Sequence record: MW822008.1
DNA: 64,000 bases
Strand: one strand, 5' to 3'
From: Escherichia phage BF17
The notes under the pieces are model-generated. The model did not search any database. It saw only the letters and a list, made by a program, of their open reading frames with translations, and was not told the DNA's origin. A program made the position numbers and the translations under genes. Each line of letters begins with the position of its first letter. Positions within the stretch are counted from its first letter, which is position 1. This document shows, piece by piece, positions 9,991 to 11,591 of this stretch.

Positions 9991-10557
9991 ATGGTCAAAT
10001 CTTTATTACCGCCACCAAAACGTCACAAAATCAAAGAAATGAAAGAACAACGTACATTAAAGATGTACATCAATTTAGTTAAGTTACTGTGTAAAAGTCC
10101 ATCGCTCAAAGCAGAGTTTAAAACTGATGATGACCGCAAAGCACTAATTGAGATGAAGTATATGCTCAGTAAAATGTCCTTTTACAAATTTGTAAAAGAA
10201 TACGCATCTGACCCATTTAGTCCTCGTTGGAGAGCCAAACCAAGAGAGTATTTTTACGGTGGTTCATATACGGATCTCATTCAAGACACAGTGATGGGAG
10301 TTGAATTTGAAATCGATTATGAGCCGAATGGTGTGGAAAGCTGGCCGATTGAGAAACGTTTACCAAGTGAAGAAGAAATTTATGTTTATGCAAGAAAACT
10401 TTCAAATTTCAGTTCAAGAATTACTCTAGGCAATTTAGATTCATTTATTATTTTCTATACACGTGTTGGTGTAGATAAAATGGTAACTAAACTCAATGAA
10501 CTTTCATTACAACAAAAACAGATTAATGCATACAAAGACATTACTGATTTATACTAA
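9991..10557 (+). CDS. hypothetical protein, tandem paralog family A member 1
   Basis: Shares block D(D/N)xRKxLIExKYxLSK with the next two ORFs. Confidence 0.5.
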   Translation: MVKSLLPPPKRHKIKEMKEQRTLKMYINLVKLLCKSPSLKAEFKTDDDRKALIEMKYMLSKMSFYKFVKEYASDPFSPRWRAKPREYFYGGSYTDLIQDTVMGVEFEIDYEPNGVESWPIEKRLPSEEEIYVYARKLSNFSSRITLGNLDSFIIFYTRVGVDKMVTKLNELSLQQKQINAYKDITDLY

Positions 10558-10563
10558 TGAGGA

Positions 10564-11085
10564 ATGGATATGTTTTTTGGATCAGTTGGAAAACAAAACA
10601 GTACTTTAATTTGGCATGAAATTATCTTTAAAATTATATCTAAAAGCTACTCACTAAAGGATATTATCACCACAGATAATGATAGACGTATCCTGTTAGA
10701 TGCAAAATATAAATTGAGCAAACACCCTTTACTTTCTTTAATCATTGATTACGTTAATGATTATGAATCTAGTCGTTGGAAGTGGGAAGACGGCGGTTTA
10801 TTTCGTGGAAAAACATTCTACGGTGCGGAACGATATGTTTTCAGTGATACATCAAATGGCGTTAAGTTTGCTATTAGAAACTTTAACTCCAAAGAAAATG
10901 ATTATCTTGAAAGTGGAGTGAAAGTATATATCGATAATAATAGCAATGTACTAACATATGACGAATCACTAATTATGTTACAAATAATGCGTGGAGTTGA
11001 AGGTGTAAGAAACAACCTTACTAAATTGAAAATCCAGCAAAATGATATACATAATAGACAGAAAATTAAGGGTTTATATAAATGA
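10564..11085 (+). CDS. hypothetical protein, tandem paralog family A member 2
   Basis: Shared N-terminal block DNDRRILLDAKYKLSK. Confidence 0.5.
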   Translation: MDMFFGSVGKQNSTLIWHEIIFKIISKSYSLKDIITTDNDRRILLDAKYKLSKHPLLSLIIDYVNDYESSRWKWEDGGLFRGKTFYGAERYVFSDTSNGVKFAIRNFNSKENDYLESGVKVYIDNNSNVLTYDESLIMLQIMRGVEGVRNNLTKLKIQQNDIHNRQKIKGLYK

Positions 11086-11591
11086 TTTCATTTTTCAAAA
11101 AGAAACAAAAAGTTGATGAAACCGGATTAGAATCGTTTCTGTGGACTCTTATCATCAAAAAAAGCCCATTGATGAAAGAATATGCTATCAATGATGCTAA
11201 TAGAAAAACTATCATTGAATACAAATATGAATTATCTAAATGTGATCCAATTGTTTATCACTTTGCGAAGTACTGTTCAAAAAATTTATCGGATATCACA
11301 ATCGACCACGAGTCAGTCCCGATGAGTTTTCCTTATGGTGATTGGGTAGATACTTTTGATATTTTTGATGGGTCAAATGGTTTCAGTTTCTTTTACTCGT
11401 CAAATAAAGCAAATGTTCGTATTAAAACAGACATAGGTTGGACACAGCATAGCTCAAATAAAGAAGATTATAATTTATTAGCTGACGTATACCGAAGTGT
11501 GAAGAATTCAAAGGATATTGATGAAAGAATTAAAAAGCAAAATCGTATATCTTTATCACTTGAAACATACAAGTCAAAGTATGGTGGTTAA
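11082..11591 (+). CDS. hypothetical protein, tandem paralog family A member 3
   Basis: Shared block DANRKTIIEYKYELSK; ATGA overlap with upstream gene. Confidence 0.5.
   Translation: MISFFKKKQKVDETGLESFLWTLIIKKSPLMKEYAINDANRKTIIEYKYELSKCDPIVYHFAKYCSKNLSDITIDHESVPMSFPYGDWVDTFDIFDGSNGFSFFYSSNKANVRIKTDIGWTQHSSNKEDYNLLADVYRSVKNSKDIDERIKKQNRISLSLETYKSKYGG

Follow-up and report, generated by a model that had tools for sequence, protein, structure and literature searches.

Three small paralogous genes upstream of an RlaP nucleotidyltransferase gene define a protein superfamily of RaK2-like jumbo phages

This study was concerned with three consecutive small genes, here called A, B and C, in a 64,000-nucleotide stretch of Escherichia phage BF17 (sequence record MW822008.1), the whole of which is referred to as the window. 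A sequence-only reading of the window had described these genes as a tandem, diversifying array of paralogs. The three proteins are confirmed here, by comparison of their sequences, as true paralogs of a single superfamily. The locus belongs to the genus Asteriusvirus, within the RaK2-like jumbo myoviruses. Positions 9000-13500 are 100% identical to Escherichia phage vB_EcoM_phAPEC6 (MK817115.1) and 99.6% identical to phage 121Q by megablast. The features of the locus are collected in Table 1.

Table 1. Features of the locus, with positions in the window and, for the genes of the block, the ratio of nonsynonymous to synonymous divergence (dN/dS, omega).
Feature	Position	Strand	Description	Omega
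Virion gene gp323c	3882-6578	+	898 aa; first of the upstream trio; detected in virions	
195-aa open reading frame (ORF)	6590-7177		Second of the upstream trio; 121Q gp500	
~900-aa ORF	7104/7263-9923		Third of the upstream trio; 121Q gp501	
Intrinsic terminator	9928-9951	+	10-bp stem with 5 GC pairs, then T-run; closes the upstream virion trio (3882-9923); from terminator scan and sequence	
Sigma70-type promoter	9940-9968	+	TTGACG-17-TATAAT; 11/12 match; 23 nt upstream of A; overlaps the terminator tail	
Shine-Dalgarno sequence	9980-9985	+	AGGAGG; 5 nt before the ATG of A; conserved in A4 and JNE01	
Paralog A	9991-10557	+	188 aa; phAPEC6 gp321c = 121Q gp502; type-1 lineage, PHROG 18641	0.13-0.22
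Paralog B	10564-11085	+	173 aa; phAPEC6 gp320c = 121Q gp503; type-1 lineage, PHROG 18641	0.18-0.20
Paralog C	11082-11591	+	169 aa; phAPEC6 gp319c = 121Q gp504; type-2 lineage, PHROG 7868	0.07-0.09
Gene D	11594-11995	+	133 aa; acidic, isoelectric point (pI) 4.4; gp318c; PHROG 22376	0.05 (UE-S1 only; dS saturated against Turkey3)
RlaP-family (PF10127) Pol-beta nucleotidyltransferase (NTase)	11992-13224	+	410 aa; gp316c; last gene of the tightly packed block	0.035-0.05
Inverted repeat	13233-13263	+	AGTGTAATGG-N11-CCATTACACT; AT-rich hairpin just after the NTase stop; read from the sequence	

Paralogous genes and their transcription signals

The DNA is AT-rich (31% GC locally) and the genes from A to the NTase are separated by only 6, -4, 2 and -4 nt. 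The start codon of C overlaps the stop of B (ATGA), the NTase start overlaps the stop of D, and the terminator scan called no terminator between any of these genes. For B, the likelier start is the ATG at 10570 (171 aa), because homologs open with MFFG; the 121Q annotation also supports it. The NTase product matches Pfam PF10127 (6e-16, 59 bits against a cutoff of 23) and also PHROG 388. A, B and C are all annotated as hypothetical in the phAPEC6 and 121Q records, and no description of these genes was found in the phAPEC6 and RaK2 papers.

By BLASTP, A and B share 30% identity over 183 columns, which is their full length (E=8e-16), A and C share 43% over 40 aa (E=9e-5), and B and C match at E=3e-4. 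Smith-Waterman comparison against 1000 shuffles gave z=24 for A-B, 6.5 for A-C (0/1000 shuffles reached the score) and 5.0 for B-C (1/1000). A and B match phrog_18641 from end to end (6e-80 and 3e-85), as C does phrog_7868 (6e-58). In addition, A and B match phrog_7868 (B at 6e-12, full length) and C matches phrog_18641 (5e-5). The family hidden Markov model (HMM) built here scores the three proteins at 3e-44 to 7e-52. Thus, each of the three pairs is significantly similar by both BLASTP and Smith-Waterman comparison, and the claim of three consecutive similar small genes was confirmed by BLASTP, shuffles and PHROG profiles. The multiple alignment suggested along with that claim, made with 13 and then 43 sequences, shows C to be homologous to A and B over its full length, including the invariant penultimate Tyr. 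The same proteins are already catalogued in PHROGs as phrog_18641 (A/B) and phrog_7868 (C), both of "unknown function". PHROGs keeps these two families apart, whereas the cross-matches, the full-length alignment and the single HMM that retrieves all members place them in one superfamily.

The motif proposed for the three proteins from sequence alone, D(D/N)xRKxLIExKY(M/K/E)LSK, was approximately right and forms the core of a family-wide signature, but its exact letters differ from the segments as actually read, which are TDDDRKALIEMKYMLSK, TDNDRRILLDAKYKLSK and NDANRKTIIEYKYELSK. Among 43 members the near-invariant core is KS..L......D..R(R/K)..I..KY.LSK, together with a conserved Asp after strand 2 and the penultimate Tyr.

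One might ask if such similarity reflects chance or composition, or if the ORFs are genes at all, since the DNA is AT-rich and the direct A-C and B-C matches span just 40 residues. However, the shuffle z-scores of 5-24, the full-length profile cross-matches, the 47 cluster representatives that share a conserved architecture, ortholog omega values well below 1, a confident AlphaFold model, the strong ribosome-binding site and the compact gene spacing all argue otherwise. The chance or compositional explanation is refuted by these tests.

The block sits behind transcription signals of its own. Terminators are annotated in Klebsiella phage Muenster and Salmonella phage Munch at the spot equivalent to the terminator before A, and the -35 (TATTGAC) and -10 elements of the sigma70-type promoter are kept in JNE01, A4 and Muenster. 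The published phAPEC6 virion proteome (62 proteins; PMC7247149, Table 1) lists gp323c, gp315c and gp314c and does not list gp316c-gp321c. The absence of A, B and C (gp319c-gp321c) from it bears out the view that these are non-structural, accessory genes. Phage PA5oct, which is an outlier in the RaK2-like clade, relies on host RNA polymerase (RNAP) and has TTGAC/TATAAT promoters (PMC7318152). Taken together, the terminator, the promoter, the absence from the virion list and the use of host RNAP by PA5oct lead to the reading of A through the NTase as a non-structural operon transcribed by host RNAP, and we infer that it is expressed early or in the middle of infection. The A, B and C proteins are probably intracellular and made by the host polymerase at those times. 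The hairpin after the NTase gene was not called by the terminator scan and has no T-run, so it is no canonical terminator; it may mark the 3' end of the operon or a processing site.

Other signals were noted in the window. Three perfect (12/12) sigma70 promoters, TTGACA-16/17-TATAAT, are intergenic at 16722-16750, 46934-46961 and 47026-47053. The first is upstream of an ACP-like gene at 16796 and the other two are in tandem upstream of a gene at 47225. The T4-type late-promoter motif TATAAATA occurs only once on either strand of the 64 kb, at 3840-3847, which is intergenic and 35 nt upstream of gp323c. About 18 occurrences would be expected by chance from a rough estimate based on base composition, and the motif appears to be strongly avoided elsewhere. 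Also, the phAPEC6 GenBank record lacks the second and third ORFs of the upstream trio, both of which are annotated in 121Q, and holds only a 114-bp "gp322c" there. The ~900-aa ORF, being absent from the annotation, was therefore probably not identifiable in the virion mass spectrometry (MS) search.

Family range, age and selection

An exhaustive HMMER scan of 1.84 billion cluster representatives (threshold E<1e-3) found only 47 matching representatives, of 150-210 aa. The named cluster members listed are all "hypothetical" or "uncharacterised". Two long matches, P0047 and P0050, were considered as domain fusions and rejected as tandem-repeat artefacts. Since all members are 150-210 aa and the longer matches are artefacts, the domain is always stand-alone. 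The cultured phages that carry members are all RaK2-like, and include Asteriusvirus, Alcyoneusvirus, Eneladusvirus, GAP32, CBB, Serratia BF, Erwinia pEa_SNUABM, Xanthomonas XbC2 and the Salmonella phages Munch, 7t3 and SE_PL. In addition, many "Escherichia coli" isolate assemblies at NCBI hold contigs of 345-383 kb that encode family proteins. These contigs are whole Asteriusvirus genomes within bacterial assemblies, by a carrier state or contamination.

The same three genes were found by tblastn in all ~31-36 Asteriusvirus records, with 1:1 orthology and a copy number fixed at three. When the family HMM was applied to all fetched loci, each genome had two to four members and never one. RaK2, K64-1 and Muenster have two copies, of which ORF001 is A/B-like and ORF002 is C-like; Munch has three, Yersinia phage fHe-Yen9-04 has four, and metagenomic relatives have two or three. 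In a neighbour-joining tree, which is poorly resolved at such depth, a type-1 branch holds A, B, RaK2 ORF001, Munch 172 and others, and a type-2 branch holds C, RaK2 ORF002, Munch 174 and others. Both members of one metagenomic contig, L012, fall on the type-1 side. Genomes thus tend strongly, but not without exception, to have both lineages. The A/B duplication is older than the split of the phAPEC6, A4 and JNE01 lineages, and the A/B split is specific to Asteriusvirus.

Signs of recent duplication were also sought. A search among the three genes for DNA-level repeats, recent duplication and gene conversion found only short chance repeats. The proportion of synonymous differences (pS) between the paralogs is 0.76-0.79, which is saturated. 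The dN/dS among paralogs proposed in the sequence-only reading thus gave no usable value, and dN/dS between orthologs was used in its place. From these comparisons the duplications behind A, B and C appear to be ancient, with two deep lineages, type 1 (A/B) and type 2 (C). The description of a tandem diversifying array, taken as recent duplication or turnover, was not borne out, given the saturated pS, the lack of DNA repeats, the 1:1 orthology and the purifying selection on the orthologs (omega 0.07-0.22). The comparison of copy number, fixed at three in the genus and two to four in each RaK2-like phage sampled, likewise gave no turnover within the genus.

Omega was calculated by the Nei-Gojobori method between phAPEC6 and its close relatives UE-S1 and Turkey3 (Table 1). 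Purifying selection acts on A, B, C, D and the NTase gene, and is somewhat relaxed on A and B. The dN of A-C is five to nine times that of the NTase gene. Between phAPEC6 and the same-genus phage A4, for which 60 reciprocal-best-hit gene pairs were compared, median identity was 79%, whereas B, A and C had 33%, 35% and 40% identity and ranked 2, 3 and 5 of 60 in divergence. Thus, the paralogs have indeed diverged, as had been claimed, in that they are among the fastest-diverging genes between phages of one genus, but they have done so under purifying selection and from old duplications. The alignments suggest a family that evolves fast around a fixed core. Against Turkey3, dS was 0.14 for A and 0.14-0.45 for A-C, and about 2.5 or saturated for the NTase gene and D. 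Against UE-S1, dS was 0.15-0.2 for C, D and the NTase gene, and 1.5 for the upstream 900-aa gene. Such sharp differences between neighbours indicate that the block is a recombination mosaic and that A-C are not strictly co-inherited with either flank.

In the comparison with A4, positions 3882-11591 form a contiguous hypervariable stretch, in which the upstream trio and A-C have 52, 41, 50, 35, 33 and 40% identity in order. Other very divergent small genes in that comparison are at 23255-23734 (29%), 24900-25343 (36%) and 20061-20489 (46%).

Conserved residues, predicted fold and genomic neighbourhood

The structure prediction that had been suggested for the paralogs gave a confident model of B. 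AlphaFold reached a predicted local distance difference test score (pLDDT) of 69 with a 10-sequence alignment, and a pLDDT of 87.9 with a predicted template modelling score (pTM) of 0.80 with 43 sequences. The model has an N-terminal helical region (helices 17-25, 31-34, 38-52 and 57-65), a four-strand sheet (72-75, 89-95, 100-106 and 119-123) and a long C-terminal helix of 40 residues (132-171). The near-invariant positions are K27, S28, L31, D38, R41, K48, Y49, S52, K53, D95, F102, an acidic residue at 134, and Y172. In the 43-sequence alignment about 12 polar residues are nearly invariant throughout the family; S28, K48, Y49, S52 and Y172 are at least 90% conserved there, and A, B and C each have all five. 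For most members the pI is about 9; within the conserved N-terminal 70 residues it is 9-10. So many invariant polar residues on a fast-diverging scaffold suggest a common ligand-binding or catalytic site, and the conserved positions look more like such a site than like the variable surface of an inhibitor.

Searches by sequence and by fold gave no significant relative of the A/B/C family. Scans of A, B, C and D against Pfam, NCBIfam and PADLOC found no family; all that appeared was a DUF2290 match of 15 bits for A and some scattered noise across the 43 members. In sequence-profile searches of the PDB, neither the 13- nor the 43-sequence alignment had a match below E=0.08, and a fold search of BFVD returned only other uncharacterised phage proteins, mostly members of the family. 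One known system to which the family was compared is the XRCC4/PAXX/SAS-6 superfamily, built from a globular head and a long helical stalk. Specific classes of function were also looked for. There was no profile or fold match of A, B or C to anti-defence or defence families (PADLOC-DB; Acr proteins) or to BECR-fold RNases (PBECR; barnase, RelE, colicin E5/D), no significant one to helix-turn-helix (HTH) or winged-helix regulators, and no Pfam, PHROG "tail" or NCBIfam match to tail-fibre chaperone families (Tfa, gp38, gp57-type, intramolecular). A PD-(D/E)xK nuclease, brought to mind by D95 followed by a strand, was rejected since the alignment has no conserved (D/E)xK motif.

The gene order around the family is shared by JNE01, A4, Muenster, RaK2, Munch and metagenomic contigs: virion trio, family members, (DUF4326), D, (X), RlaP, then small genes and an ACP-like gene. 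Gene D is syntenic with the family in Asteriusvirus, RaK2/Muenster, Munch and two metagenomic relatives. In the loci compared, the members are at the head of the RlaP-containing operon and always upstream of RlaP. In fHe-Yen9-04 and in contigs L011 and L012, a Thg1-like gene, DUF4326 and a DNA methyltransferase gene are interspersed among them; in L011 three members are between nrdG and RlaP, with no large fibre gene adjoining. Enzymes of the RlaP family extend the 3'-OH of damaged RNA by one or two nucleotides, and their homologs are widespread in bacteria (PMC12776372). Thg1-like enzymes mend the 5' ends of tRNAs, and both RlaP and Thg1 are used by jumbo phages for RNA repair (PMC7824862). 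DUF4326 is predicted to be a rhodanese-phosphatase-like enzyme that processes ADP-ribose (ADPr) (PMC9503650); in phAPEC6 it is at 3031-3363, between nrdD and nrdG (Pfam 6e-24). Judged by its gene content, the neighbourhood appears conflict- and RNA-repair-flavoured. The placement of A, B and C in an accessory region agrees with this, given the operon with RlaP here and the Thg1-like, DUF4326 and methyltransferase genes in relatives. Homologs of RlaP were found in 199 phage records, some of them from Vequintavirinae, and the RlaP neighbourhood of Av-05, the one Vequintavirinae genome examined, has no family member and no D homolog. Since RlaP occurs without family members, the family is not an obligate partner of RlaP.

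Several other features of these loci were observed. The annotation of A4, at positions that match 29960-33000 of the window, includes a tRNA nucleotidyltransferase/2',3'-cyclic phosphodiesterase, a Nudix hydrolase and a macro-domain protein; this region and 3031-3363 are rich in RNA-repair and NAD/ADPr-conflict genes. A second tandem paralog family, p1/p2 (~155-165 aa, two or three copies), is found just downstream of the RlaP NTase gene in RaK2 (3113-4031 of locus L005, ORF006/007), Muenster, Munch, Yen9-04 and metagenomic relatives (equivalents in L004, L008, L011, L012, L016 and L017). Like A, B and C, these are tandem, lineage-specific, fast-evolving genes of ~150-190 aa in the same operon, with no assigned function. 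Unlike A, B and C, which are in every RaK2-like genome sampled, p1/p2 are missing from phAPEC6, and there is no detectable homology between the two families (hhalign probability <1%). Gene D, X, p1-p3 and the ACP-like gene were tested as cryptic family members and had no homology to the family (hhalign probability at most 1%), and no further copy was found in the 64-kb window.

The fibre genes gp315c and gp314c, downstream of the NTase gene (13302-16720), are absent from that place in Turkey3 and UE-S1 (L014, L015), in which the ACP-like gene directly follows the NTase gene. Thus, the fibre cassette is an insertion/deletion polymorphism within the genus. The region 13302-13929 holds the 43-aa gp315c, which was detected in virions with 69% coverage, and an unannotated 178-aa tail-fibre ORF (13393-13929, phrog_32568). 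In A4, one intact 209-aa gene annotated as "putative tail fiber" corresponds to the two combined. The register is restored perfectly by a +1 shift at ATC TAT|T GAT (~13424-13431), giving TRIY-DGEDSSLSDSVIA as compared with THEI-SGADNHLSNSVIT, and the 121Q sequence is identical. The junction is either a programmed +1 frameshift at the UGA stop or a shared pseudogene.

Possible functions of the family

We tentatively favour, as possible and still short of probable, a reading of A, B and C as intracellular, non-virion proteins that bind a nucleic acid or phosphate-bearing ligand and act in host takeover or counter-defence near RNA-repair enzymes, with types 1 and 2 non-redundant. Host RNAP would transcribe the genes from their own sigma70-type promoter, separated from the virion trio by the terminator. 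The conserved polar site (K27-S28, D38, R41, K48-Y49, S52-K53, D95, E134 and the C-terminal Y172) would bind a nucleic-acid or phosphate-bearing ligand common to the family, and the fast-diverging remainder of each protein would tune specificity. The two types would have non-redundant roles, possibly joined into a hetero-oligomer by the 40-residue C-terminal helix, and would work beside the RNA-repair and ADPr-processing enzymes of the same operon. The earlier suggestion that such arrays are typical of immunity, anti-defence or host-interaction factors holds in so far as the genes are true paralogs, read as non-structural, in a conflict-flavoured operon, but no Pfam, NCBIfam, PADLOC, PDB or fold match connects them to such functions. 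Several points weigh against the favoured reading. A sigma70-type promoter does not establish early timing, and a literature search for an Asteriusvirus or RaK2 transcriptome found none. A paper on Avs5/JADA deals with Chimalliviridae and has no bearing on these genes. Being missing from the list of proteins detected by MS does not prove absence from the virion. Lastly, all of the genomic contexts come from one phage supergroup with a shared backbone, and the linkage to RNA repair may be inherited synteny.

A more specific proposal is that a type-1/type-2 hetero-oligomer with a new fold would serve, in the RlaP/Thg1-like/DUF4326 operon, as a part that recognises RNA ends or tRNA, or would block host anticodon nucleases or other defences that target RNA; this is unlikely as stated. 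Direct accessory subunits of RNA repair, that is, adaptors or scaffolds for RlaP and Thg1-like enzymes that recognise damaged tRNA ends or hold the enzymes as XRCC4 does for ligase IV, would account for the constant position of the members upstream of RlaP, their interleaving with Thg1-like genes in Eneladusvirus-type loci, their basic character and the activity of RlaP on damaged RNA 3' ends (PMC12776372). However, RlaP is in 199 phage records, including that of Av-05 with neither a member nor a D homolog nearby, and is widespread in bacteria (PMC12776372), recombination has decoupled the array from D and the NTase gene (dS 0.14-0.45 against ~2.5 or saturated in Turkey3), and the dN of A-C is well above that of the NTase gene, so that an adaptor role seems doubtful. 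Rather improbable, too, are transcription or DNA-binding regulators that would redirect host RNAP or bind genomes through an HTH-like N-terminal region and a dimerising C-terminal helix. The AlphaFold model does place four short helices in a span of 50 residues, ahead of a beta-sheet and a long helix; the N-terminal region is basic; and the genes stand behind a host-type promoter, with reliance on host RNAP by analogy with PA5oct (PMC7318152). Yet there is no significant HTH or winged-helix match in sequence or fold, the invariant S, K, Y, S, D, E and Y are atypical of a recognition helix, and very fast divergence is unusual for core transcription regulators.

The position of the genes suggests assembly chaperones for the large fibre-like virion proteins encoded at 3882-9923. 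In most RaK2-like phages the members directly follow the ~900/195/900-aa trio, for which the Yen9-04 and Muenster annotations give minor tail or tail fibre; the members are missing from the virion, as many chaperones are; and the trio and A-C form the single hypervariable stretch against A4. This role is very unlikely all the same, as a strong terminator and a separate, conserved sigma70-type promoter precede A, and the late-promoter motif precedes the trio only. Divergence is also decoupled, with 66-73% identity for the 900-aa protein in Turkey3 and UE-S1 and 88-98% for A-C. In addition, contig L011 has members without an adjacent large fibre gene, members elsewhere are interleaved with Thg1-like and DUF4326 genes, and known fibre chaperone families show no similarity to the proteins. 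Functions not named here hold about a quarter of the probability.

What was already known is that these proteins were catalogued as two PHROG families and annotated as hypothetical. New here, on the evidence of the alignments and loci compared, is their union in one superfamily with a defined signature and two deep lineages, present in multiple copies in each RaK2-like genome sampled. Also new is the view of its genes as fast-evolving under purifying selection and, judging from the virion list and the promoter and terminator, as non-structural and separately transcribed. Jumbo phages have many such uncharacterised families of paralogs, and a further one is an ordinary finding of moderate interest. 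The analysis weakens the tail-fibre-chaperone reading, and it puts K48, Y49, S52, D95 and Y172 on hand as residues for mutation. Among the RaK2-like phages are candidates for therapy against E. coli, Klebsiella, Salmonella, Cronobacter and Erwinia. If the favoured reading is true, every sampled RaK2-like jumbo phage would keep an unstudied component with a fold absent from the PDB. If the family were a new-fold part of RNA repair or counter-defence, it would represent a universally retained, previously unrecognised part of the means by which these phages survive RNA-directed immunity.

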